Origin: an uncultured virus (IMG/VR IMGVR_UViG_3300030106_003254) | Taxonomy: Duplodnaviria; Heunggongvirae; Uroviricota; Caudoviricetes | Reading direction: 5' to 3' (one strand) | Virus record (IMG/VR): IMGVR_UViG_3300030106_003254 | DNA: 64,000 nucleotides | Notes under the pieces: generated by a model | What the model was told of the DNA's origin: nothing | Seen by the model: the letters and a program-made list of their open reading frames with translations, nothing else | The model's database searches: none | Part shown: piece after piece, positions 156-60,714 of the stretch | Layout of the letters: each line of letters begins with the position of its first letter | How positions within the stretch are numbered: position 1 is the stretch's first letter | Translations under genes and position numbers: made by a program

Positions 156-1172
156 TTAGAGCTGCATCATGTTATTGATTTCAGCAGCGGTGTTACCACC
201 CTGTATTTTGTTGATAAGCTCGTTAGCCCCTTTTGCGACTTCTTCTCGCATAGACTGGCCTTCCTCACCTTTCAACATTTCTACGTCATATAGACATAGG
301 CTTCTTGCGTCATCAGCAAGCTCGAGGATCTCATCGAGTTCCTCTCCCTCACCAACACATAAGTCCTCAATGAGGGATCTATTACCTCCTTCAGGTTCTA
401 CTAACTTAGATACGTTAGTAATGATGGAGTCATACATCTTACCCTTTGAGGTCGGGTCGTAGTCATTCATCTTATTTCTAAGTTTAGTAACTACGTCCAA
501 CAGGCGATCCTTTAGCTCTTTGTGAGCTTCAGCAGCCATAAGGTTTTGCTTACTCTCGAGTTCTTCTTTGAAGGAAGCCTTCATTTGATCCGTCAAACCT
601 TTCATGGTCATCGCTGCTTTTGGTGCGGCCATTGGATCTTTCTCGAAGCTATAGCAGAACTTTGTAGCTAGTTCATCATTTGATAGTGTGAACCACTTAC
701 TCTGTGCTGCGGATAGCGTTGGAGCTAACTTCATAAGAGCTTTCTCAGACTCAGGACGGATCTCTGACTCCCAGCGACTTATGAAGTCTGCTGCGAGAGC
801 GTCGAATTCCATTCTAGAGTCATTCCAGAACTTCTGTACTCTGAAGAAGTTAGAAGCAGGTATTACCTTACAGGTACCGCCTCTCATCTTGCTCTTACCC
901 AGAGAGATTGTATTCTCTGCGAAGAACGTCCTGATAGAAGATGCAAGACTTCTGATCTCTGCTGTATAATCTTCTCTGATAAGATATACATTGACAGCTA
1001 TCTTCTTGTCTTTGGCTTCATAAGTAGACTTAACTACTCCTTCAGCTCGTTTGCACTCCACTCTAGGATTAGGGAAGCTAATGCTCATGTTACACATGAT
1101 TAGGTTACATGAGGCATTGGATTCCTTAGTGTTGGGTGTTGGGTTTTGGTTAGTTAGTACGTCTGTACTCAT
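156..1172 (-). CDS. phage hypothetical protein, DUF3150-like helical protein
   Basis: 338-aa ORF; overall pattern resembles the DUF3150-type proteins seen in phage early regions next to AAA ATPase/VWA genes (recalled resemblance only). Confidence 0.5.
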   Translation of the reverse strand: MSTDVLTNQNPTPNTKESNASCNLIMCNMSISFPNPRVECKRAEGVVKSTYEAKDKKIAVNVYLIREDYTAEIRSLASSIRTFFAENTISLGKSKMRGGTCKVIPASNFFRVQKFWNDSRMEFDALAADFISRWESEIRPESEKALMKLAPTLSAAQSKWFTLSNDELATKFCYSFEKDPMAAPKAAMTMKGLTDQMKASFKEELESKQNLMAAEAHKELKDRLLDVVTKLRNKMNDYDPTSKGKMYDSIITNVSKLVEPEGGNRSLIEDLCVGEGEELDEILELADDARSLCLYDVEMLKGEEGQSMREEVAKGANELINKIQGGNTAAEINNMMQL

Positions 1173-2359: not shown

Positions 2360-2465
2360 GATAGTCAGAGGTCTTTGTGTTTGGTTTATTGGGTGTTGAA
2401 ACCCTTCCTACCAACAGAGGATTGGACTCTGCTGGTAGACTGGGATCTCCGTTTAAGGCAAGAGA

Positions 2466-2969: not shown

Positions 2970-3087
2970 TTTAGTTAGGTATTTGAGTTACTAGGATGAC
3001 CTCCTAGTGGGTTTGTGCGATGTGCACATTAGGACACTCCGATATCTATGTGATAGCGAAGTGCCCGTGATGTACACACTAACTAGG

Positions 3088-3414
3088 CTAGTTGCCGTGA
3101 GGATAGCTCTTGTATCCGGTCGGCGTTTGCCTGTAGCTGAGTGTATTGTCGTCGAGGGCTCGCTTCTTTTGGGCGGCTCTCGGCCACTTCATGCCTGTTG
3201 GGTGTTCGGTACCCAGACAACCAGCTTTGTATCCGGTGTATCCGTCTACTCCTACCTCGCCACTAAACTTGCCATCTATCTGTAGTCTGGCGTCCCAAGG
3301 CAGTTGCTTGAACTGCCGGGCACTAGCTAATATCTGGCGTTCCTTGGCGGATAGCTTGCTGAATTGCTCCTTGGCTTTGCTTGGTTTTTGTCTACGTCTA
3401 TTACGTTTACTCAT
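3088..3414 (-). CDS. basic hypothetical protein
   Basis: ORF track 3088..3447; ATG at 3414 after AACAACAACAAACCC is the more likely start. Confidence 0.65.
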   Translation of the reverse strand: MSKRNRRRQKPSKAKEQFSKLSAKERQILASARQFKQLPWDARLQIDGKFSGEVGVDGYTGYKAGCLGTEHPTGMKWPRAAQKKRALDDNTLSYRQTPTGYKSYPHGN

Positions 3415-3444
3415 GGGTTTGTTGTTGTTGCTTATTAAGTATTG

Positions 3445-3995
3445 CAACGCACTGTTTTAGTAGTGTGTTGCGAGCATATCGTATGCTCTAAGCTACACTC
3501 AGAGTATTGTGAAATACTCCTACCCAACACTTGGATGTTGGATCTTGGGTGTTGAGTATTGAGTGCAGGTGTAGAATACACGATGTTACTTATAGTTAAG
3601 TTGTTTCCTTCTAATCTATCTCCCTATGATAGTGTTGATTGATATTTAGTGTCGTTTACCTGAGATAACCACTCTCGTTAACCTACGGCATATTGCGTTC
3701 GGTCCTGTACATGCTGATATAACTCTACATACTTTCACACGTATGTGAGACTAACCTTGTAGTTGCTTGTCGCTTTCCGGCGTGAATTATGTACTACACC
3801 GGGACAGTATCGAATTAGGAGACACGTTTGTCCCATACCCGAGGACTCAATCCTGATTCGAGTTAGGCATAATAGATCTCAATGATAGGGTGAGGTCTAT
3901 TATACTAGCGTAACCTGTCAATTATTTGAGATGAATTTTGCTTACAAAGCAACGTGCGTTGAAACATACAATAATATGCAACGCTATTCATCTAC
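3445..3995 (-). ncRNA. candidate large structured RNA / long structured leader
   Basis: no long ORF; more than ten hairpins with nested multiloops, most G-U pairs favour the minus strand. Confidence 0.5.
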
Positions 3996-3997
3996 TA

Positions 3998-4012
3998 CAG
4001 TTTTCAAAGATC
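3998..4012 (-). promoter_or_regulatory. rrn-type boxA antitermination motif
   Basis: GATCTTTGAAAACTG resembles the (G/T)TCTTTGAAAACT boxA of many bacterial rRNA leaders; non-coding context. Confidence 0.6.
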
Positions 4013-4171
4013 GCATTTAAAGATTTAATAATAATGGAACTGGACTCATCCTATTCAATATCCAACGCATTAGATTACATTATTAATTAAACTAGACTCT
4101 TTTGAGTTCTTAAGGTTAAGGACGATATTCTATTTATCGCCGTACCTATCACTTGTATAATTCTGGACACT

Positions 4172-4207
4172 AAAAAGCCCCGAACCAGTTTCCCAGTCCG
4201 AGGCTTT
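4172..4207 (-). terminator. intrinsic terminator
   Basis: AAAGCCTCGGACTGG-GAAA-CTGGTTCGGGGCTTTTT directly after the 4223..4555 stop. Confidence 0.8.
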
Positions 4208-4222
4208 GTGATTTAGTAACTT

Positions 4223-4555: not shown

Positions 4556-4627
4556 ATACTTTTTTTGTGTTGTGATCTACGCAGTAGATCGGGTTTATAT
4601 ACATCATATAGCCGTATACATAGACCA

Positions 4628-4702
4628 CGGGGGGAGGGGGTGGGAGCCCCCGCACCCTAGGCGTGATAGGTAGTCATTGTCTGTAAAAATTTCCCGTATT
4701 TT
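4628..4702. other. G-rich element, possible genome terminus / packaging initiation site
   Basis: GGGGGGAGGGGGTGGGAGCCCCC followed by AAAAATTTCCC, at a module boundary. Confidence 0.35.
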
Positions 4703-4842
4703 CATAGTATACGTATAAAATAAGGCCCGTAAGTCGTGGTTTTAATGGGGGTACCTACCTAAAACAAAATGACATAAACTTCTGTCACAAAGGGTAAAGA
4801 CGCCAAAAAAAGGGTAGGTAAGTTTTTAATCGACATCTTTAG

Positions 4843-5142
4843 GGTGGGGGATGGTGGAGATGTGGTGGAGATGTTTTGAACCATCCCCACCACGACCAAA
4901 ACACTTACACTCAGGGACTTAAAGGGTGGTGGTGGAGATGGTGGAGATGTTTTTACCTAAAAGTATAGAAGATAAGAATCATCATATCGCCCCACCCCTG
5001 TTAAACCCGAAAACCGGAAACTCACCAGAAAAAGTTTTTTTCCAAAACATCTCCACCATCCCCACCACTTTCTTGTAAGACTCTTGTTTTCAATGACTTA
5101 AGGTGGTGGAGATAGCGAAAAACCATCTCAACCATCCCCACC
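4843..5142. repeat. iteron-like 9-mer cluster (GGTGGAGAT / GGTGGGGAT), putative replication origin
   Basis: about 11 copies in both orientations around an A-rich core, downstream of the primase-helicase operon. Confidence 0.75.
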
Positions 5143-5144
5143 AC

Positions 5145-5372
5145 TCAAATAATCCAATCCTCAGGCCCTTGATCTTCGTCTTTTTTGTCTTCTTCACGCC
5201 ATTCAAATGGCTCTTCGTAGAACTCGTAATAAATGTATCTAACAGCAGCCCTTATTGACGGAAACAATGCCACGGGGTTTTTGCCCCAAAATAACGCCAC
5301 CTCCCCGAAAGGAGCTTCATACATTTTAGCTTCTCCGCATATTGCTATCAACTTAGGCATTTTCCCGGCCAT
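5145..5372 (-). CDS. hypothetical protein
   Basis: 75-aa ORF, TATATT 5 nt upstream of ATG. Confidence 0.55.
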   Translation of the reverse strand: MAGKMPKLIAICGEAKMYEAPFGEVALFWGKNPVALFPSIRAAVRYIYYEFYEEPFEWREEDKKDEDQGPEDWII

Positions 5373-5399: not shown

Positions 5400-5831
5400 T
5401 TAGCCCATGTATTCTTTAGAAACGCCCTTAAAAACACGCTGGTTTTGTCTAAAAGCTTCATTTGTAATGACTTTCGCCAAAGAGTCTAATACATGACTTC
5501 TTATAAACCTGTTTAACTCTATTGGGTCTTGTATTTCACTTATGCCCACAGACGCCTGCAATAAATGCTCTTTTTTATTTAACTTATACGTAATATTAAC
5601 CTTGTACTGCCAATCATCGGCGTCAGCGTAAACGTTAGCTGCGACATTTAAATCATTGTTTATTTCTACAGAACTTAAATATTGTCTGCTTAGATCTTTT
5701 TCTAACTCCTTGATTTTATCCTGTTTATTTTTCTTACGCTCACGTTTAGCGTCTATTTTATCCTGCTTTCTAGCTATCCGGATGTTTTCCTCTATAGACC
5801 GTTGTATTGCTTCTCTTACTTGTTTGTTCAT
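5400..5831 (-). CDS. hypothetical protein
   Basis: 143-aa ORF coupled to the primase stop by ATGA overlap. Confidence 0.7.
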   Translation of the reverse strand: MNKQVREAIQRSIEENIRIARKQDKIDAKRERKKNKQDKIKELEKDLSRQYLSSVEINNDLNVAANVYADADDWQYKVNITYKLNKKEHLLQASVGISEIQDPIELNRFIRSHVLDSLAKVITNEAFRQNQRVFKGVSKEYMG

Positions 5832-7957
5832 ATACTTATTTTATACGTAACTGAGCCTCGCACAAGTCGTTTTGAAACCTTTTTTGGATACTGAGAAGTC
5901 ATCTTGGACATTGTACGCCCGAATGTGATCTTGTTTAAACTTCTGGTAAACACCTTTAACTCATCAAAAGTCTCCATTGTACCCATAAGCTCACTCACAT
6001 TGCCTTCCCAAGGGTCTTCATTACTCCTCAACTTCCACCAAAACTGAATCATCTCCCAATCACGTTGATCGGCGGATAAGTCTTTGGCCATCGATATAAT
6101 ATCAGGGTGGTGATAAGTATTTATCCCAAACCTGCCGGAAGCTCCCTCAACAACCTCTTTTGGAGGTTTATACTCATTTTTGATATATGCAAGAGCATGA
6201 GGAAGCTCCCGGTCTATTATGTCCTCTATTTGTCTGTGTGTTTTCCCCCTAAACCAAGGTTTGTAATTATTAGACATTTTAACAATCATTAACTTGTCTA
6301 GAATCGTACCATCAAGATTAGGTAGTATAGATAATGAATCAGCGTCTGTATTCGTCGTTAAAACAACCCGTCCACGTCTTTCGATGTCTACAGGCTCTCT
6401 ATACATCGCTCTAACAGTCATTTTTGGGGATGCGGTCAGCTTTTTGATCATTTCACTGAATCTACGATGTTCCGACAAAGAAGACGCTGACGCATTATCA
6501 TCAACATACCAAACAGCACTTTCTGCTAATTCCTTGTTAAAATTTTCCTTACCTGTCAAGAAAGCCCCTGCATCAGCTCCCCCACTAAATATTTTGGGTA
6601 ATATGTATGTCGCAAAAAGAGATTTACCATAATCAGCGTCTCCAGCCATTATTAACGAATGCCCGGCTTGTGAATCGCCCCTTTCTGCGGAGTTATAAAA
6701 GTGTTGTAACCAAGAAAACACATAATGACTTGATCTAGGGTCATCCATCCACTCATTGAACCAATCAAACAAAGTAGGCCATAACTCGGGGTTTGGGTCG
6801 GCTGCTGGGGGTAAAACCCTAACATGTGCGTGAGTATTGATATACCTTTTCGCACCAACATTGACTACCTCATCAAAATTAAACAAAAAGGGGGCTGCGC
6901 CATGGATTCGACGTTCGTCTTGTACATAAACAATAACTTCGTCTATCTCAGTAGCGGCATCCCCCTTTTTGCGCGGCTTGCTTGAGAAACCAGCCAGTCT
7001 CAGGCGGGTGATAAAGTCCTCCTTTAACACTGGGCTCCAAACTTCTCTCCCATCCTTCACCCAATACTTCTGACCATCGAACCAAGTATCGGCAACCGCT
7101 TCAGCGACCTTTTTCTCTCTGTACTGTTCAACAAAAGCTTCACCCAATATCTCTGACCAAGACACAAAAGACTTACCCGCCCTAGTCGAGTAACACCACA
7201 TACCACCCAACTGCACAATACAACCTACCCGGTCTACTTTATCATCTATCCAAAACAGTGGACCCCTGCACCCAACATCAAATTCTCCAGTCCATCTCTT
7301 ACCAAAATCAGGGTACACTTCCTGTATTTTCTCATGAATAACATCCATTGGTATGCTAACTTTACCCTTAGGTCCCGATGTCTTTTTCGCACAGTCAAAA
7401 AATAAAGTTTCTAACTTCAATTCGTCAATCGGATCAGACACCTTTGTCCAAGAGGAACCTAACTCCCAACACATGGCTGGATTACGCGATGCAGCGTCAT
7501 AACCGTCCACCAAAGTCTTGGCTCTTGTCTTCACCAACAACATATCATACAACTTATTTAAAAAAGCCTCGTTATCCGAAGGCAGACCCTTAGAAAACTC
7601 CCAAACCCCTCTAACTTTACCAGAATAGGTTTTTGTCATGTAAGTAGGCTCCCAACCCACTGCACACTTCATCCCATCGATGATATCCTTTAGTGTTTTG
7701 TTAGGGAGAGAGTCATCATCATAATCAGCACAAAAACCATAAATTCTATAAGGCGGGTTAGAACCAGACACCCTATGATGTGGGTTTACCCCCTCAACGA
7801 GGGTATAAAAGATGTGTTTAGTTGCTGGATCTTTGCACCACTCCCTAAAACCCTCTTTTGAGGAGAATGATGGTATTTTTGATTGTAATGTTGCTGGATG
7901 TTTTAGTGATACTTTGGCTGTTTTGCTAGTGTGGTTTTCGAGTATGTAATATTTCAT
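5828..7957 (-). CDS. primase-helicase (AEP-like N-terminus, SF3/DUF5906-like NTPase C-terminus)
   Basis: FCADYDD and TYSGKVR primase-like motifs; Walker A GDADYGKS, WYVDD, VVLTTN. Confidence 0.8.
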   Translation of the reverse strand: MKYYILENHTSKTAKVSLKHPATLQSKIPSFSSKEGFREWCKDPATKHIFYTLVEGVNPHHRVSGSNPPYRIYGFCADYDDDSLPNKTLKDIIDGMKCAVGWEPTYMTKTYSGKVRGVWEFSKGLPSDNEAFLNKLYDMLLVKTRAKTLVDGYDAASRNPAMCWELGSSWTKVSDPIDELKLETLFFDCAKKTSGPKGKVSIPMDVIHEKIQEVYPDFGKRWTGEFDVGCRGPLFWIDDKVDRVGCIVQLGGMWCYSTRAGKSFVSWSEILGEAFVEQYREKKVAEAVADTWFDGQKYWVKDGREVWSPVLKEDFITRLRLAGFSSKPRKKGDAATEIDEVIVYVQDERRIHGAAPFLFNFDEVVNVGAKRYINTHAHVRVLPPAADPNPELWPTLFDWFNEWMDDPRSSHYVFSWLQHFYNSAERGDSQAGHSLIMAGDADYGKSLFATYILPKIFSGGADAGAFLTGKENFNKELAESAVWYVDDNASASSLSEHRRFSEMIKKLTASPKMTVRAMYREPVDIERRGRVVLTTNTDADSLSILPNLDGTILDKLMIVKMSNNYKPWFRGKTHRQIEDIIDRELPHALAYIKNEYKPPKEVVEGASGRFGINTYHHPDIISMAKDLSADQRDWEMIQFWWKLRSNEDPWEGNVSELMGTMETFDELKVFTRSLNKITFGRTMSKMTSQYPKKVSKRLVRGSVTYKISI

Positions 7958-9685
7958 TTATTTCGTATATCTTTCCATTTGTTCTACATCAGTACCTAGA
8001 GGTAGTGACTTACACCACTCCGGCGGCTCAGACATAATTCTATCTATGTCCTCTGCGGCCTCTTTTGCATTATCCAAGTCAGCTTCAATCACCACCTCAT
8101 CGTGGACTCTCAAAACAACCCTGTGACCAGCTTTTCGGAGGGCAAGTACTCTATCCATAAAAACATCTCTGGCAAATGCCTGAGTAGCATTTTCAATCAA
8201 GGTTCCTTTCCAAAACCTCAATCTTTGCATCTTACCTCCTCTAGGTATTTCAGCAGATAGCCCTTTTTCAAGTTCTACCCGCCGATATTTCATGGTTCTT
8301 CCTGAAGGGAGTCCAATTTCATAGTCCCCTCCGTTCGATTCACGCATATCTCTTTCCATAGAAGCCCAAAGTTTTACCAACTCAGGCATCTTAGATCTGA
8401 AAGTACGTACCATTGAAGTGGCATCATCGTACTCAACACCAGTTATGAGTGAAAATTTGTTAGCAGACATCGCAAACTGACATCCTAGACACATCTGTTT
8501 CATTGTGTGCCTTAATGTTGGGTTTTGGATTTTGAGTGGTGCTGAGTCTTTATACATACCAAAAGCTCTAGCCTGCGCCTCATACCAGTCCATTCCCTGC
8601 CTCGCAAGTTCCAACATGTCGTCTTCACCCGCTAACCAAGCCGCACAACGTGCCTCAATTTGCGCTAGATCAGAAACTAGAAGGGTTTTACCCGCTCCAG
8701 CCCTCACACAAGACCTTAAATCGACCCCATACATACCACCTCTAGGTAAATTCTGCATATTAAACCCAGAATCACCACTATCTCTGCCCGTATGAGCTCC
8801 AAAATACTTCATTCCGTATGGGAGCCTGCCATTTTCTATCCTACCTCCCATTGTTTCAAACTTCTTTAGTAGAGAGTTAGCTCCCCTAAGATCGTGAGTC
8901 GCCTCAAGAACTTTACCCTCTTCCGGGTTATCTTTGATCCATTCAATAACTTCTGGATCAGTCTTTGCCATAGAAGCTGGAGGCTCTTTCCCCTGAGAGC
9001 GGCACCATGCAGACCATTCTTTTGGAGAAAGAGCTCCTGCCTGTGCTTCAGTCCACGGCAATACTCTAATAGAATCGCAAATCTTTTGAGAGAGTATTCC
9101 TATAGACTTATGAATTTCTTCTTCGTCTATAGGAACCCCATCCCAACACATCCTTGTGGTCTCTCTGGAGAGGTCTCGCTCCCACTCAGGCCACGATGAT
9201 TCATTCTCTTTCCATAGGCAAGCACACCCCTTAGCATCAAACAGGGCATATTTAGCGAGCTCTATCTTCTCTTCTTTATCTAAATCCTCAAACTGCCTAC
9301 CTTTCATGTTATCCCTGACTTCTTTAGACATGACCAAGCCAAGAGATTCTTTTAAGGATTCCTTTAACGATCTCGGATATCCTGAGTAAGCAGCCATATC
9401 TGCTGTGCAGTGCCACTCTTTAAATTTAGTTGGGGGAATGACGCCAGTGCTTATTAAATGATCATGCACTGGTTCGTCAAACCCCCTATTGTGTGAGAGA
9501 GCTATAACCCCCTCAAGTTTGTCCCAAGGAGCGTCCTTGGGATGCCCTACCCACGCAAAGTTGTCATCACAATATATTGATACCATGTAAGCATCGAAAT
9601 TGTCATGTTTTAAATAGTTCTGAAGACCGTCTGTAATTGTGCAGTCTTTATCATAGTATGTTTCGTAATCAATACCTGCGTACAT
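7958..9685 (-). CDS. polA: DNA polymerase family A with 3'-5' exonuclease
   Basis: Exo I IDYET, Exo II HNRGFD, Exo III YALFD; HTGR; motif A SDLAQIEAR, motif B RHTMKQMCLG, motif C VHDE. Confidence 0.93.
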   Translation of the reverse strand: MYAGIDYETYYDKDCTITDGLQNYLKHDNFDAYMVSIYCDDNFAWVGHPKDAPWDKLEGVIALSHNRGFDEPVHDHLISTGVIPPTKFKEWHCTADMAAYSGYPRSLKESLKESLGLVMSKEVRDNMKGRQFEDLDKEEKIELAKYALFDAKGCACLWKENESSWPEWERDLSRETTRMCWDGVPIDEEEIHKSIGILSQKICDSIRVLPWTEAQAGALSPKEWSAWCRSQGKEPPASMAKTDPEVIEWIKDNPEEGKVLEATHDLRGANSLLKKFETMGGRIENGRLPYGMKYFGAHTGRDSGDSGFNMQNLPRGGMYGVDLRSCVRAGAGKTLLVSDLAQIEARCAAWLAGEDDMLELARQGMDWYEAQARAFGMYKDSAPLKIQNPTLRHTMKQMCLGCQFAMSANKFSLITGVEYDDATSMVRTFRSKMPELVKLWASMERDMRESNGGDYEIGLPSGRTMKYRRVELEKGLSAEIPRGGKMQRLRFWKGTLIENATQAFARDVFMDRVLALRKAGHRVVLRVHDEVVIEADLDNAKEAAEDIDRIMSEPPEWCKSLPLGTDVEQMERYTK

Positions 9686-10805: not shown

Positions 10806-13274
10806 CTATTTTATTTCGGATAAGAACTGAGAATCTTTAGCGGTTTCAATAGCACCAAGTCTATGGAGCTCTGACATCACTTCTGATACCCTTTCTTTTT
10901 TCTTACCACGAGGGGTCTTATCAGACACCAGTTTCTCCAGTTTGCCAACTGGAAATTTTTCAATTCCTTCTAGGAAATCTTCTACGTCTACCATATCCTT
11001 AACAGCCCCGAAAGCGGCTAGTGCAGATGTAATAGATCTTCTACCTCTTCTTTCTTTAATTTCAAATCCCGGTATTTGTATACCATCCTCCATAGCCATC
11101 TTTTTAGCAGCATACTCAACTCCAGCAGCCCATTTACGTACTATAGGGACTGCCTTTAACATATCTGCAATAACTTTAGGGTCGGTGCAATCACTACCAT
11201 GAATGTCCTCAGGCATATCTAAAAAGTCTTTAGCTGAAGGAGCGTATTTCTTAGCGGTCTCTAAAGATAGTTTAGCTAAAGAAGGACAACGACCAGCATT
11301 TTTACAGTAGTTACATATCTTTAACTGAGGAATGAGTTCATTAGGGTCTGCGTCTGAAAAACACGCCCTAACTTTCTTGGCCCTCTTAATTACATTGGAT
11401 ATAGCGTGAACCACTTCATCCATATCTTTCCGTTCAAAAGTGTGGAACAATATTTCATCCCTGCGACAAGCTATAAAGTAAAAGTGTATTGTGTCTAACT
11501 GCGGAAACCTTTGAAAGGCACCTAAAGCATACGCCTTTGCTTGCCAGTTATCTTGAGGCTCATCAACAGCCATTTGACCAGTCTTATAATCAATTTGAAC
11601 TGCTTCAGTTCCGTTAACTGTAAGTCGATCACAAGTACCAAACGTCTCCTCACCTGTAAGCTTCATTGTAAGCCTAATCTCTTTATAGTCATCTAACTCA
11701 CCAAAGTTCTCTGAGTAGCCGTGGTTATCGAATATAGCCTCTTCAGCGTTTCTACAACCTTGAGCTAGGGAAGACTCATAGTCGTTTAAATTAGACCAAT
11801 CTCCGGTCTCTAACGCCTCATGTATCCTAGTCCCCATCTCTGCGGCAGGGTTAGTACCACTTTCACCTTCGTAACCGGGACAATGGGCGGACATTTTAAT
11901 CGAAGAAGGGCCATATTCAGCGTGAGCTTGCTCTTCATCGACGACAGTTTGCTTTTTATCTTCCATATTAGTAGTATTATATACGTCATTTTGCGAATGA
12001 AGCAACTTTAAATTTTCAATTTTTGTCATCATTGAATTAACTATGCTAGTTTCTATAGTTTTTTCAGCTACTAACACCCTCTGAACACTTTCAGACATTC
12101 CCCCCAAACGATCCACACGTCCTAAACATTGATGAAAGTCTTTAGCATTATACGTAGGACTTATTAGAGCTAATCTGGGAGACTCTCCTGTGGTATCATG
12201 TAAACTAACCCCAACACCACCCGCAGCAGTATTACAGAGGATTACTTTTACTTTACCAGTTTGGAAAGCTTTTATAGCAGAATCCCTCACATCTTTATTC
12301 TGGCCTCCCTGCACAAAAGTGTGGTTTTCTTTAAGCCTGCGGGACAAAGCGTCTATTGAATCAGTAAAGTTTAAGAAAACAGCTACAGCATTTCCAGCTT
12401 CCCTAGCCTCGGTAACCATATCAGCAATGTCAGGAACCTTCAAAAGCTCTATTTCCTGCCTTAACCGTAGTATTTTAGTTAAAACTATAGGTTCATCCCC
12501 ATCACCTTCTTTTCTAGCCTCTAGTTTTTCTATTTCAGGCTCTAATTCCTTAAAAAGGCTGTTTATTTTAGCTTTTTTGCCAAACCTAATGGGGTCTGTA
12601 ACTATCCTAGTCTTTTGAAAGTGTGTGCCTAAATCTTCTCTCGTAAGCTTATGCCCACGTTCTGGGTATATAAGTTTATTAAGTTCTTTTAATTTCCCCC
12701 TATTTCTTTCTGGAAAGTTTAAAGAGTTCCACCGATCAAACTCACAACCCCAATTTTGAGCCCAAGCCCAGAAGTTACTTAGACTATGTAAACTCAACGT
12801 AAACCCTAGAGCTCTCATCTCTCTAGGGTCTTCAGCAGCAGTAGCTGATAGCAGTAAAATCTTAAAACCCTGCTTTTTAGCTGCAATAAGCATATTAGCG
12901 TTCAATGTACGAGTCCCTTTAGCTTTGTGACACTCGTCAAACACCAATAAAACCTCTTTTGGGTCCAAATTTACCCATTTAAACGCTTTTTTACCTGCTT
13001 TTTTGATCCAATTAGTGTTCCCAGCCCTTAATTTCTCCCAATTATACACATTATAGTCACTTACACCTTGCTTGTCTAAAGTGTCTTCCCAAGAAGCTAT
13101 TACCGTTTTCGGGCAAACCACGAACGGGGTAAGAGCCATGGTTTTAGCAATTTCCACCGCTTTGAGCGTTTTTCCCGTGCCCGTGTCGGACGAATCGAGA
13201 GCGGCTCCGTGTTTTTTGAGGGCTTCAACGAGGGCTTTATGTGATTTTTTCTGAGCTGGATAGAGTGTTAGCAC
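10806..13274 (-). CDS. SNF2-like SF2 helicase fused to Cas4-like PD-(D/E)XK nuclease (DUF2800-like)
   Basis: DTGTGKT, DECH, SAT, QCLGRVDR helicase motifs; HAEYGPSS..CPG, GTRIHE, GTCD, IDYKTG, CNYCKNAGRCP nuclease/Fe-S motifs. Confidence 0.85.
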   Translation of the reverse strand: MLTLYPAQKKSHKALVEALKKHGAALDSSDTGTGKTLKAVEIAKTMALTPFVVCPKTVIASWEDTLDKQGVSDYNVYNWEKLRAGNTNWIKKAGKKAFKWVNLDPKEVLLVFDECHKAKGTRTLNANMLIAAKKQGFKILLLSATAAEDPREMRALGFTLSLHSLSNFWAWAQNWGCEFDRWNSLNFPERNRGKLKELNKLIYPERGHKLTREDLGTHFQKTRIVTDPIRFGKKAKINSLFKELEPEIEKLEARKEGDGDEPIVLTKILRLRQEIELLKVPDIADMVTEAREAGNAVAVFLNFTDSIDALSRRLKENHTFVQGGQNKDVRDSAIKAFQTGKVKVILCNTAAGGVGVSLHDTTGESPRLALISPTYNAKDFHQCLGRVDRLGGMSESVQRVLVAEKTIETSIVNSMMTKIENLKLLHSQNDVYNTTNMEDKKQTVVDEEQAHAEYGPSSIKMSAHCPGYEGESGTNPAAEMGTRIHEALETGDWSNLNDYESSLAQGCRNAEEAIFDNHGYSENFGELDDYKEIRLTMKLTGEETFGTCDRLTVNGTEAVQIDYKTGQMAVDEPQDNWQAKAYALGAFQRFPQLDTIHFYFIACRRDEILFHTFERKDMDEVVHAISNVIKRAKKVRACFSDADPNELIPQLKICNYCKNAGRCPSLAKLSLETAKKYAPSAKDFLDMPEDIHGSDCTDPKVIADMLKAVPIVRKWAAGVEYAAKKMAMEDGIQIPGFEIKERRGRRSITSALAAFGAVKDMVDVEDFLEGIEKFPVGKLEKLVSDKTPRGKKKERVSEVMSELHRLGAIETAKDSQFLSEIK
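11976..12005 (-). promoter_or_regulatory. internal sigma70-like promoter before the nuclease domain
   Basis: TTGCTT-18 bp-TATAAT, in-frame ATG at 11966. Confidence 0.55.
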
Positions 13275-48915: not shown

Positions 48916-51900
48916 ATGGCTAATGTTCCTTTTTGGAAAGATATTGAATCCAATGAAAATTACATAAACGCCCCTGTCGAGGATAAATTAACTATATTAG
49001 ATGGATGGGAGAAGGATAGATATGCAGAAGGTGTTTTTACTTCTCCCGAATCTAAAATGCACTTCGAGGCGGCTGTTTTTGGGGTTAGGGAAAAGTTAAG
49101 TAATCCTGAAGGAACTGACGAAGAAATTTTACAAGGCATAACACGACGCAAACAATTTCAAACTTTTGATTATAGAAATAGGTTTGAAGAGACACGTAAA
49201 AGAGATGCGAGAATAAATGCCCAATCTCTTGGTAGGAGTACCTACCTCAACGAAGATATTGTTTTTAGTGACGCCGAAAATAATTGGATCAAAAATAATA
49301 ACGTTAATCAGAACTTAAGTAATGATTGGGTTATTAGAAGAGGTTTAAATGAAGATGACCCAGAAGACTATGAGGTTAACTATGCGTTAGCCCTTTTAGG
49401 TAAAGACGAGTTTTCTAACAGGATTAATGCTCAAGACAACTTAAGTCAGTCCGATAAAAATAGAATTATATCTAACTACAAAAACTACGAGATAGGGGCT
49501 TATGAAGATCTTTTTACTAGCATAAGTTCTAAACAAGTAGGTACTACTGGTAACACTTTTCAAGAAGACGAAGATGATGACGAGATCTTGGTGGAGAGCA
49601 ACCCAATGTTCCTGACAAAAGATCGTCTAAATAACTACAGAAAAAAAGCTTCCACGGAACCTGACGACATGGAAGCTGTAGTTGATAATATTGTATTGGC
49701 TTGGGGAGACAGAAGGGGTTTAAACAAAGAAGAGTTACTTAATCGAGATAACCCTCTAAGAGAAAACATTAAAAATTTTTACAAAGACAGCTTATTAGAA
49801 CACCGAGAAGTTTGGCAAGACGGTGAAGTAGCTAGACAAAACTCAGCAGGAGAGTGGGTTTTAAATAAGAAATGGACAGGTGATTTATCTTTAACAGAAG
49901 AACAAGTTAGGGAAAAAGTTGAGAAGTCTAGTTTAGATATACCTAAAGAAGTTCTTGAATCTTTTTTAATAGAGAAAGGTGTTAAGGATGATGTAGTAGC
50001 TCAAAACTTAATAGATCAAGTCTACATGACGTTTGAGGGAGAACCTTCGTGGTTTACTCCAGCGTTCGCCAAAGAACTATATACTTTCATAGAAGCTAAT
50101 AAAGACAAGGACTGGACAGCCAAAGACATTGTACGTGAGTATCAAAAGGAATTTAAAGGTGTAGGGTTTTTTGGGAAGTCTATTGATTTTGTCCAATCAG
50201 CAATGACGGGGGCTGCTTATATATTTGGTGATGCAGCCGCAGGTGGGATAGGAATGGCTAGAAACCTTATGGGTGATAAAGAGGGGGAAGAACTTTTAGC
50301 AGCTCGAAGACAGTTCCAGCAGTCTAAAGATGCTATGGATAAGTTGTCAGGTAATAAATGGGGTTCGATGCTTGGAGGTGAAGCTGCGTTGATTTTAGCT
50401 ACTTTGGGAGGCTCTTCAACGTTTAGAGCAGGGAGTGCATTATTTGATCAATCTAGGATTGTTAGGTTAGGTAATAACACTAAGAAACTTAAAGCCGTTA
50501 ACAAGAGGCTAGATGGCATTGCGAATAATTTGGAGAATGGAGACATCCTAAATGATATTGGTAAGCTTAAAAGGTTTACTAATCGAGTTGCAGGAGAGAC
50601 TTATGCAGGACTACAAGCCTCTCGTTCTATGACAGGTTTTTATTCTGACTCATACTTTACCCGTAAAGAAAACCTTATGTCTGAGGGTATGGACGAAGAT
50701 GAGGCAGGAGACTTAGCTAGCAGAACTTCTATAGGGCCTTCACTTCTAGCAGGTGCCGTTACTTGGGGTCTGATGAAACTTATACCGGGCGGTGCCGAGG
50801 ATGCTTTTACAAACTTTAGCACACTCACTACAAAACAACTAGCTGCTAAAATGAACATATCTCCCAAGAAGCTTGGTGAGTTATTAAAGAATGATAAGTT
50901 TAAAGATGCAGCAAAAGGATTTTTAAGAGAACAAGGACGTTTAAAAACTTTAACTTCAAGCGGAGCTGGCGGGTTTATTGTAGGGGGTGTAAAAGAGTCT
51001 GTAGAAGAAGGTTTAGATGAATTTTTCCAAGGCGTAAACGCCATGGTTACTTATAACCAAGAGTTAACTATGGACGACGTTTTGTCGGGAGCTTTTGAGG
51101 GGGCTATTGTCGGAGGTATTCTAGGTGCGAGTATTAGTGGTCCGATATCTTTAAGGAATAGAAATATCTCGCAATTTGATCCTGAGATACAAGCGCGTGT
51201 ACAGAGGTTAAATGACTTAGCGGTTCAGCTAGAAACTACCAACCCTGAAACAGCCCAAGCGTTAAATGAGAAGCAGGAAGAGCTAATTAATAACGCAGAG
51301 TCAACATTGGAGCCTGTTTCAGAAGAAGAGATAGCGTCTGAAGTAGAAGAGTTGCAAGAAGCTCAAGCTTCTGTTTTTAACGAAAGTTTAAATAAAGCAC
51401 AGGAAATAATCGCAGGTGATGGCACTAATACAGAAAAAGCTGAAGCTTTGAATAGCCTAGCTGCTGAGATATACCCAACTTTTCAAGATAACGTAGGTTT
51501 ATTTAAAACCTTTAGAGACAGGGTTAGTGCTAGTTCTGGGGGAGACATAAGAAATGCTGGTTTGTTTCCAGACGCAGATACTTTAGCTCTACAAGCTTTA
51601 ACTGAAAGTTTAAATCAAGATGGAGTTACTCCACAGGGAACTCCTACCAAACGTTTTATAATACCTAAAGCTAGGTCTATACTGAGTGCAGCCGACGATT
51701 CTAATGACCAAGTAGATACAAATTTGTTAGGGGCATTGGATGTAGCCTTGTCATTGCCTGAAGCTGAAATGTTTTTAAACCGAAGGGCGGGCGTTAAATC
51801 TAATAAGGATGGGGCAATCACAAAAAGACTAAACGGATTTTTAAATACATTCAACAGTACTTTAGATAGTTTTAATAATGCGGTCGAAGCAAGTCGTTTA

Positions 51901-54900
51901 GATCCTCAAAATGCAGAAAAACTTGATGCGATTACTAGAGCAGCTAATCAATTTAGAGAAGCTATAAAGTCTTTTTATAAGACTTCTAGGCAAAGTTATA
52001 ATAGAACCCTTAAGAAGACTTATAAAGAAGTCCCTTCAAGGAACACTATTATAACCTCTGCACAAGAAGGAGAAGCGGTTCCCATAGCTAATATTTTAAA
52101 CTACGTAGACACTAAAAATAAATTTTTAGACCTACCTACCTTTGAAAAATTAAATGTGACTTCAGCTATCCCCGGGGATGCTTTTACTTCTCTCAGCGCA
52201 GAAGATAATATTTTTATTAACGAGATAGAAAACTTAGAAGGTTTTTCTGAAGTAGATCGCTCTAATGAACAACAGCTAGAAGAGTTTATAGAACGAGCGG
52301 CCAATGAACTTGAAGTTACAGACCCTTCTGTTAAAGCTTACGCATTTAATAGACTTGTAGAGAGAGTAAGCACACGACCAACAACTCCTACGGAAACACC
52401 TGTAGAGCCCACAGATGAGGATCTTACAACTGATTCTTTCCGCAACTGGGTTATAAACACTAAGGGAATAGATGTAAACGAGGTAACTAACATGGATCAA
52501 GCTATTGCGTTGTGGGAAGAGTTTTCGTCAGAAGTCGCCCAAGACTTAGATCCATCTCAAGCAGGTAGGGATATAAGAAATGTCTTTGGTACGTTTGGTG
52601 TAGATCAAACACCCGCTCAAGAAGATATGGGTGAAGAGTCTACTGTAGAAGACCCAGAGTTAACTGAAGAAACACAACCACCTTCTGTTGAGCAAGATGT
52701 AATAGAAACATTGCTTGATGTAGATTCCGCGAAAGAAATAAAGGACTTAATAGATGAAGCTGCTGAGATAAGGCAGCCCGGAGATTTAGAAGCATTAAAA
52801 GATACTGTCAATTTTATTGGCGATTTTTTTAGTTCTATCGATGTTGGACAAACTTTAGGGTCTGTAACCAATACAAACGATCTTTTAGGACTTGAAGACG
52901 TAGCTACTTTAAAAGCTGAGGTAGATAGCGATCTAGAAGCTATACTTAAATATTATAATACCCTTACTAAAAGAAAATTAAATATCCCCAACCTTTTAGA
53001 CATAAGAACTGAAGAGCAGTTAGCAGATGTAGAGGATAAGTATATGGTATCTTTACAAGATGCTACTACGATAGGTAAAGAAAACGGGGCTGAAATACAC
53101 GCTAAGTTTATGTCAGGTCAGGGAGTGTATTTGACACCATCTTCTTTTGTCTATGCTACGGGAGAGAAAGCAAATCAAAGTCGCAGACGATTTGGTTCTA
53201 ATGAAAAAAACATGGCTCTAAAAAATAACAAGGCTTTACGAGAAAAATATCCAATTATAGAAGAGGTACCTGAAGGAACTGTAGTTAAAAAGATTTCTAT
53301 ACAAGGTTTGAGGGATAAATATTCAGGAAAGAATGTCAGTTACAAAGAACTTGTAGAGACCGATAGGTCGTCAGTAATCCTAGGTAAAAATCCTTTGTTG
53401 TATAAGTATTTTTTAGTTTTAGACGGCAATGGAGAGTTTGTGTTTACAAATAACCCTTACACAGTGGCCGCTTGGTTTTCGTACTCACCTAAAAAGGGTG
53501 AAAGGTCTGGCCCTATTGAGATACCTAAAGGGTTTGATATAGATCAACTAAACCCCGCTTTTATAAGAGATAAAAACAACACAGGAAATAAAATTATAGG
53601 AGTCAGAGTTAATTTCCCAAGTTTATCAAAGCCCAACGAATTAGCTGTAGTCGAGGCGGGAGGCACTTCGTTAGCAGATCTCCACGCTAAAAACGCTAAA
53701 AATGAAGGAGGTAAAAAAAGGAAAGGAACTACACAGCCTTACAACCAAGAGTTAGACAAACTGATAGAAGCTTTTGGGGCAACTCCTGACCCAGATCAAA
53801 AAATTACACTAACCCCGGAAGAGTATAAGTGGTTAGGTTTACCTGAAGATTCTAGGCAGAGTATGCTCATGGCTTTAGAGACTGCGTGGAATAGAAACAC
53901 TGAAAGTGCTAGGTTAAAAGGTTTGGAGCGTGTTGAGGTACAAGGTAAAAGAAAGTTTATGGCAAGAGCTTTGTTGTCTATCCTTAAAACTAGAATAGCA
54001 AAACAAGCTGGAGGAAACATTGGGGATGCAGAGAATTTAAGAGCTCTATGGACTCGTTTTGAGTTAAACTTTAATGAGTATAGCTACACAAAAGCGTTTA
54101 AAGATTTAGTAAATAAATACCCAAGTAAGGCACCTATACTAGGCGATTTAGGTATTGTAGGTCTTTTCTCTACAGAAAATACCGCTAAATCAGAATTAAA
54201 ATATATAGGAGACTACCAAACAGAAGGTTTAGAAGGTAATTGGGGTAATGTTGAAGAGTTAATATCCAGAACCGTCTCGAAAGAAGGTACAGGAACACGC
54301 GCTAAAAGACATACTACCCCTATAAATGAAGCCAGTATGTCAATGGTTTCTAAAGCTTTTGAAGATGTATCAAACACACCTTTTGATGGCCTTACTGATA
54401 AGACTCGTAGAAAGATTAAAGCTTCGGTACGTAAAGAGATCGAAGAGTTAGGTTTAGTTGATGGAGATCCTGAGTCACTTAGAGTAGCTTTAAACCGTAT
54501 CGTGATAGGGGCTCAAGAAGGTAAGTACCTTGAGAACTACGGAAACGTAGCTAAGATGCTTCTAGATAGTGGGCTAGACTTAAGTAATATAAACTTTAAG
54601 ATAGGTATCGAAGCCAAAGTAGCTGGATATTATAAACCTAATAAGACAGGTTCTGGAGGAGAGATCGCCATAAGTAACAATATCGATAATGGTAGAGGTG
54701 TTCACGATTTAGTTACACACGAAATATTACACAGTGTTTTAGATAACATCATATCAAACCCATCCCCGGAACAAGAGATAGCCATACTTGCTATAGATAC
54801 TCTTATTGATAAAGGTCGTATTTACTTTGAAGATTTCGTAGCTAACAGACGTGGAGGAGCGAGAAGGGCTTTTTGGCAAGCTGCTGCTGAATCAGCAGAC

Positions 54901-57900
54901 TTTGACATAGAAGTTATCAAAAGGTTGGTAGATGAAAGTAACTCTCCTATTAAAGAAGAACTCAATCTAGATAATGATACTCCTTCTGATTTAGACTACA
55001 GAAACATATACAGGAACATTCGTGTCGAAGAACTAAAAGGAGCAGCTTACTACGACGATGTTTCACAACTTAGACACGCTTTCGGTGTTAACCCTGATGG
55101 AACATTTAGAGACACTGTAAGTACTAGAAAAGAGTTTATAGCTCATTTTCTTACAGACCCTACAGTTACTTGGTTTTTAAGTGAGACAGATCGTTTAAGT
55201 TCATCAGGAACTTTATTAGATAAACTTATTAGGGGTGTCAACAGGGCTATAACTTTGAGTCCACCAGATGAGAGAGAATCTTTCCTCAGAATATTTTTAA
55301 GTAAAACTGATGGTAGTGAGAACTACATAGACTTAGCTACTATTAAAAACATAAGAGACATTACAGGTCTCAGCGAGCAAGACATCGAAGACGCTAGGAA
55401 CTACAGAGAGTCTGTAGCAGCTTTTACAGGAGAGCCTATTTCGTATTCTGAATCTCAGGAAGTTATTGATTACTGGGATTCTTTAAACACTAACTCTCCG
55501 GCAAGAACTGTAGCGGCAGCTTTCAACGTGTCTATAGTTCCTTCTGATAATGTGGGAACTCCCGAAGTATATGATTCAAACGTAGTTATGGTGCCTAAAG
55601 GGTACTACCCAGAAGTTGAACGAGATATACTATCTAAAGTAGTTGAAACCGCATATACACAGAGTTACGCAACTGGTAGACGTACTCAAGTCGCTGGAGG
55701 GTTTGTTCAAAGTTCTCCAGACTCAGCCGATACAATCTCCAATATGATGGAAACAGCAGGCTCTTTTGAGGGTTTGATGGGCGACTTAGTTGCAGATGCT
55801 TACTATGGAAAAGAAAGTTCCGAAGAATTAGGGTACGGATACCCTTTAAGTAGTTTAAGAAACCATATACTTGCAGGAAACTTTGGTCAGAGAGTTGCTA
55901 GTCAGCTAGATCAAATTATGGGGGCTATGGATAACATTATTCCGAATGCCCGAAAGTATGCTGATGACGCTTTTATAAATGGAAACAATTCTTTTCACCG
56001 CGTAACCGCAGCTACCGCCATAAGAAAATTTAATTTAAACGTTAGCCCAGACAGTTACATAGATTTATTCAAAACTGCTGTAGAGACTAGGACTTCATTT
56101 GAAGACCTATTAGATGAAAACTTTATTGTAGAAGAGGATAGGAATGATTTAGAAAAAATAAAAGAATATCACATAGAGCAGCTTAATAAGTACAGCGAAA
56201 GTTCTGACCCTGACACAGTAGCTGCCGCAGCATTAGAAAAAGATTTGTTAGGGTTAACTTCAAACACTTCTTTCTCCGAAGCACAGACAGCTTTTGAACC
56301 AGATGAAGATCAAAAACGACGGGGGAGTATTTTTAGTAGGCTGTTTAAAATACCTCAAGATCCTAAGAACAAGTTTGAAAAAGGAGACCCATTACCACTA
56401 GCTGCTGATTATTTGGGCGTTGTTTCAGCGGGAGCTACTTTGGATACTAAAGGTAAAGAAACTTTGGTAAGAAAATTTCTTGGTAGAAATAACTTAGTCA
56501 TTAAAAACTTAGATAGGTTTTTACAGGGTATGTCTGTTTCTGGTAGAGCAGGAGCAGTTTTTCAAAAACAAAGCCAAGAACTTAGAAATAATTTAAGTAA
56601 GCGTACTGTACAGGCTAGAAACTTCGACTTATCAATAAGAAGTTTAATTGCTAAAGGAACAGGCGATAAAGAGTTTAAACAGCTAGATAAGTTAGCAAGC
56701 GGATATAAAGATGTTTTCCTAGAGAGAACTTGGGGAGTAGACTCCGCTGGAGAACAGTTAGCCCAAGACATTAACACAACTCTTGGAACCACAGATGATG
56801 ACGCTATTGTAGACGAGTTTATTAGAGAGACTGATTACACAAACGACCCTAACTATGCTTTAAATCTAAGAGACGAGCGGAATAAAAAGATAAAAATTGC
56901 TTCAGGTATAAAAGCTCGGAAGAGCTTACAGGCAGACAAGATCGAAAAAGAAGATGGTAACCCTGACCGTGCCGATAAGATTCGATCAGAGGCTAGGGCA
57001 GAAATGAATAAACAAGTAGATGAGGCTAACGATGCTTATCATTCTTTGTGGGTAGACTTGTATAAAGCGGCTGCTGATCATTTTAGAGAAAAACAAGAAG
57101 TAGCTTTTAGACGTGTTAAGCAATTTGATGAATATATAAACCAAGACAAAGAATTAACTAAAGATAATTCTTTGTATGTAAACCTTCGTCAGTTAAGAGG
57201 AGTTGTAACTGATCTACAAAAAGATATAACTAAAGACTCTCTATTAGCAGATGTGTTAGGTAATAATCTACCTAGAAACTTGAGAGCTAAGTTAGGGGCA
57301 AGTGAAGATGTCTACTTAACTAAAACATACCAAGCTCTAGATAACTCAAGAGGTTATGGAGATTGGATTCAATCTGTCGATGAAGAAGCACAAGAAAGGT
57401 ACAGAGTAGGTTTTGATTATTTCGCAGATCAAATTGCTGAAGAACAAACTGATAAACTCAAACCAGAAGAAAACAATCTAAGTAGGGTTTTTGTTAAAAA
57501 CGCTTTGAGAAAGCAAGTAGACTCCCAAGAAGTTAAACTACGATTACAGAACTTCTTAGAGAGTTTCCAAAGATCTCCAAGGGGAACTACTTTAGGTCTA
57601 AGTAACCCTAAAGTTTTAGCCCCAAGAAAACCTATAGACGCTCCTTTAAGAAAGTTTGTAGGAGAATACGAAGATAATATTTATAATGCTTCTAGAACTT
57701 TAACGACTTTAAGTGCCTTAGTTGAAAACAATAGATTTTTAAATAACATAAAAACTTCTCTAGAGTCTGCACAAGCAAAAGCTAGAGAAGATGGTAACCG
57801 AGATGTAGTATTTATCACAGATAAAGCTGCCGTAGCCCAGAACAACGGGCTTGTTAAGTTTCATATAGCAGATCGTAAAGGTTTAGTTTCTAGAGAACAG

Positions 57901-60679: not shown

Positions 60680-60714
60680 GTGTTGGGTTTTGGGTGTTGG
60701 GTGTTGAGTAGAGT

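Follow-up and report, generated by a model that had tools for sequence, protein, structure and literature searches.

To our knowledge, no function is known for the large phage non-coding RNAs GOLLD and ROOL or for those of phages ICP1 and K. GOLLD and ROOL are described as phage-borne, multi-stem RNAs of 0.6-1.3 kb with a conserved 3′ and a variable 5′ part (PMC5737381, PMC12286853), and the lytic phages ICP1 and K as carrying highly transcribed RNAs in ORF-less kilobases, the ICP1 RNA of about 800 nt lying beside the lysis cluster (PMC7567579, PMC10383478). Long untranslated RNAs are also produced from rrn operons, whose antitermination complex needs boxA alone (PMC13753749); in the same account CRISPR operons are also preceded by boxA, and the B. 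subtilis rrn boxA consensus AUGAUCUUUGAAA binds NusB. Regulation by boxA is further described for suhB (10.1101/091223). At the head of phage early operons, antitermination is mediated by lambda nut/N and by HK022 put, a double hairpin of about 65 nt that works in cis through the β′ zinc finger (PMC8632103). Tandem units of 7 nt near stop codons are found in bacteria, where they have no known function (Rehm 2015, PMC4692102).

The locus studied here is located in the window, a stretch of 64,000 nucleotides from an uncultured tailed phage (IMG/VR IMGVR_UViG_3300030106_003254), and is a conserved, partly structured non-coding element. By analogy, it would work most like an rrn leader combined with a large ICP1-like phage ncRNA. 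As in the rrn leader, a boxA of the B. subtilis/Verrucomicrobiota type precedes a long untranslated folded RNA, but no rRNA or tRNA lies behind it, neither a promoter nor a boxC or leader-trailer stalk was found, and the phage boxA is restricted to one clade. The ORF-less kilobase in a lytic phage is shared with ICP1 and phage K, where high transcription was shown; for the present element, no DNA similarity to cultured phages was found. It falls outside GOLLD, ROOL and all Rfam families: the size and layout are similar, but it has no Rfam match and no tRNA island, its modules are mosaic and, with no terminator at its 3′ end, it continues into an early gene. The position at the head of an early operon, the boxA and the small basic first gene recall lambda nut/N and HK022 put; however, the element is ten times longer and has no boxB tetraloop beside boxA, the first-gene protein is unrelated by the searches made, and put differs in size and layout (PMC8632103). 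The heptamer arrays of the phage resemble the bacterial repeats in unit length and proximity to stop codons, but consist of a single C/A-rich arm on one strand only and also occur within coding sequence and a structured RNA domain.

The minus strand of the window encodes polA (7958-9685), primase (5828-7957) and a helicase-nuclease (10806-13274), and the plus strand tail genes and a terS-like gene (1290-1844). The latter lies antisense within the early cluster, 12 kb from the remaining plus-strand structural genes, as it does in L016. An ORF of 3729 aa at 48916-60105 (plus strand), with an HExxH motif and without PHROG match, is probably an internal virion protein. Blastn against cultured phages returned 12 records, every one a 29-nt chance-level match; among these phages the primase had no match and polA identity was only about 25%. 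As these matches were too poor and distant primase relatives (about 35% identity) spanned bins labelled Blastopirellula, Opitutae, Verrucomicrobiales, Acidimicrobiaceae and Altibacter, no host was assigned.

A primase scan yielded 12 related loci. Three stop within primase, L011 stops before the gap, and eight reach it, either entire (L008, L010, L013, L016, L019) or cut (L009, L014, L015). Pattern scans contributed L027, L029, L042, L045 and L076; true homologues accounted for four of six viral matches and at least five among the 52 metagenome matches listed. Additional pattern scans gave no further lineage (in one, 6/15 matches were from an unrelated phage group; in another, 28/30 were unrelated). 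Grouped by eye, without a tree, the sequences form five lineages: window/L008/L009, L013, L016/L027/L014, L015 and L019. The order is constant: primase is followed by inverted repeats, a conserved A/T-then-G/C element and a gene of roughly 100 aa that is poorly conserved across relatives, and then come a strong hairpin, the gap and small early genes. An ORF-poor gap was present at the syntenic place in eight related loci, with a length of about 790-1290 nt in the complete ones. BoxA was not found in 73 distant primase-relative loci (about 35% identity). Six ORF-free gaps were seen among distant primase relatives; those of L105, L111, L117, L118 and L158 measure 460-585 nt, some with z of -3 to -5, and have no boxA.

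In the window, the largest stretch without ORFs of at least 60 aa is 3461-4222 (762 nt; the runner-up is 471 nt). An earlier sequence-only reading had described a non-coding region of about 550 nt; the gap is real, but its extent had been understated, the full element running on the minus strand from 4222 to 3415, from a terminator-like hairpin to the Arg-rich first early gene. Its features, and the heptamer sites elsewhere in the window, are as follows:

4172..4207, minus strand: hairpin resembling a terminator (GAAA loop, U-tract), following a 110-aa gene; 5′ edge of the gap
4013..4171, minus strand: variable spacer, in which TGATAGG (4151-4145) is complementary to the D2 loop
3999..4012, minus strand: rRNA-type boxA GATCTTTGAAAA(CT), core 4012-4001, missed by the sequence-only reading
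3929..3993, minus strand: D1, three-way junction with a GCGTTG/CAACGC hairpin
3803..3919, minus strand: D2+D3 multiloop
3904-3868, minus strand: D2 hairpin, with CCCTATCA shown in the loop
3861-3810, minus strand: D3, 11-bp stem, mismatched at its fifth pair
3728..3802, minus strand: D4 hairpin (3802-3777) and D5 hairpin with GTGTGAAA loop (3748-3728)
3582..3727, minus strand: A-rich, weakly folded linker, z not below shuffles
3481..3581, minus strand: 3′ domain, P1-ACC bulge-P2 around the heptamer tract
3581-3572/3490-3481 (P1), 3568-3560/3501-3493 (P2) and 3563-3536 (heptamer tract), minus strand: parts of the 3′ domain
3444..3471, minus strand: terminal hairpin GCAAC...GTTGC(A), in 7/7 sequences examined
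3415..3443, minus strand: A/C-rich translation-start region with a third GCAAC
3088..3414, minus strand: first early gene, 108 aa, with Arg/Lys-rich N-terminus
1130..1150, minus strand: heptamer array in the early region, behind a TAA
8516..8536, minus strand: heptamer motif within polA
60681..60708, minus strand: heptamer array between two leftward genes

A strong hairpin marks the 5′ edge in 8/8 elements, with a clear U-tract in five (window, L008, L009, L013, L015) and a weak or absent one in L014, L016 and L019. The promoter scan found nine sites against 10.5 expected and no sigma70-like site in 4171-4013. TTGACA-N11-TATAAT at 3921-3899 was rejected as a promoter, the spacing being wrong and the motif absent in L008. 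BoxA, which opens the conserved part of the element on its 5′ side, agrees across 11 nt with the B. subtilis consensus (PMC13753749); it is the single exact copy of GATCTTTGAAAA in 64 kb, with a chance expectation of 4e-4 in the gap, and is retained in L008, L009, L029 and L042. Differences from the window fall mostly upstream of it (34/36 in L029, 25/31 in L042), with two and six, respectively, from boxA onward, a step in conservation that recombination could also have caused. Upstream of 16S genes in the phylum of Verrucomicrobiales bin L163, the exact 12-mer was present at 93-147 nt in 4/30 loci, and 20/30 leaders had a site with at most two mismatches from the motif. In a PWM built from these 16S-leader sites, which is partly circular because it was seeded with the phage motif, the window boxA was the top site on both strands with 20.0 bits, and L008 and L009 scored 16.1 and 21.7; the best site in L013, L014, L015, L016 and L019 reached 6.8 bits (the L014 and L015 loci are cut). 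A boxA-like AACCTTGAGAAC in L013 was discarded, as the PWM gave no support. No GNRA boxB adjoins boxA; D1 comes next, with loops TATT and TGT.

The stretch 3445-3995 folded better than dinucleotide shuffles (z -3.59 on the minus and -3.95 on the plus strand). The description 'densely structured' applies to the final 140 nt, where the signal is concentrated (z -6.7), and moderately to 3920-3801, but not to the middle 280 nt, which fold at shuffle level: 120-nt windows from 3860 to 3561 gave z of -0.7 to +2.2, and 3580-3860 against mononucleotide shuffles -1.0/-0.1. All 11 arm pairs named in the sequence-only reading were located on the minus strand (3993-3444), three with a C-A or A-C mismatch. 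Three of these stems are probably not the conserved ones: in place of TCACA/TGTGA a CATAC/GTATG stem forms, with covariation in L008, GCATGT/ATATGC has no clear L008 counterpart, and GAGCATA/TATGCTC competes with the longer enclosing P1 of all lineages.

Folding energy by itself leaves the strand undecided in the window. With the terminator excluded, the opposite strand folds better in the window (z -6.5 vs -4.4; 12 shuffles) and in L008 (z -7.7 vs -6.0; 12 shuffles), whereas in the other six of the eight elements it is the early strand that folds better locally. The minus strand is indicated by boxA, the U-tract and the gene order. GNRA/UNCG-type tetraloops across eight elements numbered 12 on the early strand against one on the other and 1.2 in shuffles; the window contributed none on the early strand, and the canonical C-G closing pair is missing in 7/12. 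Seven distinct substitutions were counted from boxA onward in two close relatives: two form a compensatory pair, three turn a wobble or mismatch into a Watson-Crick pair, one is in a loop and one breaks an end pair.

The Rfam covariance-model search of the whole window gave no match, GOLLD, ROOL, group I intron, tmRNA and RNase P included at gathering score; a second search gave four matches at E 2-5, none within 3445-3995, and six relative loci gave just four sub-threshold matches. ARAGORN found no tRNA in the window and none in 10/10 loci. The best antisense target within the phage's own genome had E 0.04. In the main texts searched, no account of the element or of a boxA-led lytic-phage ncRNA was present. 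The claim of a structured non-coding RNA region of a class without Rfam match was supported by the Rfam null, the syntenic ORF-poor gaps, covarying helices and frame-breaking indels.

The modules are real but patchy. In D1, 91% of cells were paired and 3/16 pairs had changed on both sides, with 6-35/500 shuffles equally high; the covariation is within the window's clade, perhaps with L014, and the D1 model R2 had no match in L013, L015, L016 or L019. In D3, using hand-set registers, both sides had changed in 6/10 pairs between window and L008, 7/9 between L008 and L013 and 2/9 between window and L013, and the fifth-pair mismatch is common to window, L029, L008 and L013. The D3 stem was missed by RNAalifold on the MAFFT alignment because of misregistration. 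D4 has counterparts in L008 and L013, and D5 in L008. In the 3′ half of the linker, sequence conservation with L008 persists.

The P1-bulge-P2 layout is common to window, L008, L013, L016, L027 and L019, and the 3′ domain with P1, ACC bulge, P2 and GCAAC/GTTGC hairpin is present in all complete elements; in L019 the P2 sequence is entirely different and the pairing is kept. Model R1, built from four sequences, recovered the held-out L013 with 55.5 bits (E 4.8e-12), and with filters off the syntenic site ranked first within L019 (14.9 bits, E 0.018); there was no match in 19 distant primase-relative loci. In the MAFFT alignment, where the register of L013 and L019 is partly wrong, pairing extends to 82% of cells, and 7/31 pairs changed on both sides; with only five lineages, shuffle controls were borderline, with 12-71/500 for four measures and 286/500 for pair types. 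The terminal hairpin is 28 nt long in six sequences and 38 nt in L019, and its inner pairs vary. Its reading as GCAAC-N17-CGTT, which we take to be an ECF promoter consensus, was abandoned, as the covarying inner pairs and a longer spacing in L019 weaken it. T(A/T)AGCAAC sits 12 nt past GTTGC in 6/7 sequences, and from the sequence the third GCAAC could pair with the terminal GTTGC as a switch.

The 108-aa protein of the first early gene had no PHROG, Pfam or Atlas match. Seven representatives were found at E<=0.001, five of which were either training members or short with a basic N-terminus. Early genes are separated at 2985-3085 and 2408-2440 (minus strand) by long hairpins, possible RNase III sites; L010 and L013 conserve the former, whose last part is found three times in G001.

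Within the 3′ domain lie C(C/T)CAA(T/C)A units, a (CCCAACA)n tract. A search for such heptamer arrays gave 15 matches against 1.04 expected. In a strand count over the window and seven relatives, 19 were on the early strand and one on the opposite strand; in distant loci there were five in 906 kb, and in L019 none. A further array lies at 2400 in the window. Heptamers within polA occur in the window, L009-L011 and L014-L016; among four lineages this motif has the tied-highest 24-nt nucleotide identity (20/24), the tie being one unrelated stretch 50 nt off, against a background in which 60/381 invariant polA residues share a codon. C-rich, G-poor RNA of this kind may serve in Rho loading. The same CCCAA(T/C)A arrays are intergenic in the non-phage-looking contigs L026, L033, L038-L041, L052, L054, L067, L068 and L075, and on some non-phage-looking metagenome contigs they form inverted pairs.

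Upstream of the gap, 4620-4725 (minus strand) carries TACGTA...AAATTTTACA...CCCTATC followed by a G/C run, conserved in all nine aligned sequences; it is a candidate genome end, resembling cos/pac sites, and the L011 contig terminates within its counterpart. Just downstream of the primase cluster, 4847-5145 contains GGTGGAGATG/CATCCCCACCAC repeats in direct and inverted orientation, likely a replication origin, with conservation of about 70% in L011 and L013-L016. CCCTA(T/G)C occurs in both orientations (window 4670, 4145, 3889 and 3634; L014 11820-11971; L016 11824-11919) in hairpin loops, palindromes and the terminus-like element. L019 14276-15480 has four hairpin-type copies of GATACGT(C), and heptamer arrays and boxA are absent.

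We tentatively interpret the element as an early ncRNA under Nus protection, composed of modules that bind host proteins, a reading to which we give a little less than an even chance. Host RNA polymerase would transcribe the early region leftward, with the gap forming the 5′ portion of the transcript. Its RNA modules may fold independently and be exchanged among lineages like early genes, with the fixed 3′ domain closing the string beside the first gene. A long untranslated RNA is a target for Rho, which would explain why the window's clade has placed a host rRNA boxA in front; NusB-S10 would load there, take the polymerase through and help folding as in rrn operons. The modules, perhaps once processed, would most likely bind or decoy host proteins during takeover, and the 3′ domain would display a (CCCAACA)n site that the phage repeats past early stops and in polA. 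What the sequences show is the gap and its synteny, the covarying helices, the boxA match and the strand bias of the heptamers; transcription, Nus loading, processing and the decoy role are inferred. A bare antiterminator takes less than 100 nt and boxA serves long untranslated RNAs, so that the RNA is read as the product; mosaic turnover beside small orphan early genes suggests that host proteins may be bound.

The sequence-only reading had left open an ncRNA or an antitermination leader, of which the latter is backed by the rRNA-type boxA, although this is confined to the window's clade; of the two, a modular ncRNA co-transcribed with the early genes is favoured. A purely cis-acting antitermination or attenuation leader in the style of lambda N/nut or HK022 put is the main rival, less probable though not far-fetched. 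BoxA and hairpins would then modify the polymerase, the Arg-rich first gene would be an N analogue and the heptamers nut or Rho-loading sites grading expression. It fits a boxA at the head of the region, a protein with basic N-terminus immediately downstream and heptamers directly past TAA, followed by hairpins, at five sites (three of them in L013, the others in L016). However, a signal of the size of put leaves 0.8-1.3 kb of variable modules unaccounted for, a GNRA boxB beside boxA is missing, the 108-aa protein resembles no known family in the searches made and its L019 homologue is not the first gene, and five loci have no boxA. A single large, ornate RNA of the GOLLD/ROOL kind, folding as a unit and possibly oligomeric, would be of comparable size and could draw on the conserved 3′ and variable 5′ parts of GOLLD and the unconserved linker of ROOL (PMC12286853), as well as on a possible loop pairing of 9-12 bp between TGATAGG and CCTATCA in window and L008. 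We consider it unlikely, with no Rfam match or tRNA, the D1 model missing in other lineages and no long-range pairings found in common between lineages; only the 3′ domain is common to all, in a set too small for R-scape-type tests of a whole-length fold.

A DNA-level control region near a genome end, with operators, promoters or packaging-protein sites whose palindromes mimic RNA stems, is given the same low probability. Both strands do fold, wobble is neutral on strand (G-T 14 vs A-C 13), CCCTA(T/G)C lies both ways round in the gap and in the conserved element 4725-4620, L016 has three GGCTAGG-N5-CCTAGCC palindromes, and the GCAAC-N18-GTTGC spacing is constant in 6/7; yet pairing is kept where stem sequences change, tetraloops are strand-biased, boxA works as RNA and the spacing differs in L019. 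That the gap is filler, tiny ORFs or decayed neutral DNA, is very improbable: 17 ORFs of at least 20 aa overlap it, seven of them inside it on the minus strand, and its middle is unstructured and fast-changing, but the reading frames that window and L008 share are disrupted by indels of 1, 2 and 5 nt, and conservation from boxA on is strong.

The modular early ncRNA may be taken further, to an early 'RNA cassette': a mimic of the rRNA operon that borrows Nus factors, carries swappable decoys against host defence or regulatory proteins and includes a (CCCAACA)n site that is selected even within polA. This extension is speculative and we think it improbable; if true, the bacterial heptamer repeats would gain a first function. 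The narrow distribution of the element limits its significance. It offers handles in its host rRNA boxA, fixed 3′ domain, swappable modules and the heptamer site along the early operon, and if the modules are decoys, the phage early region would carry an RNA payload alongside its protein payload.
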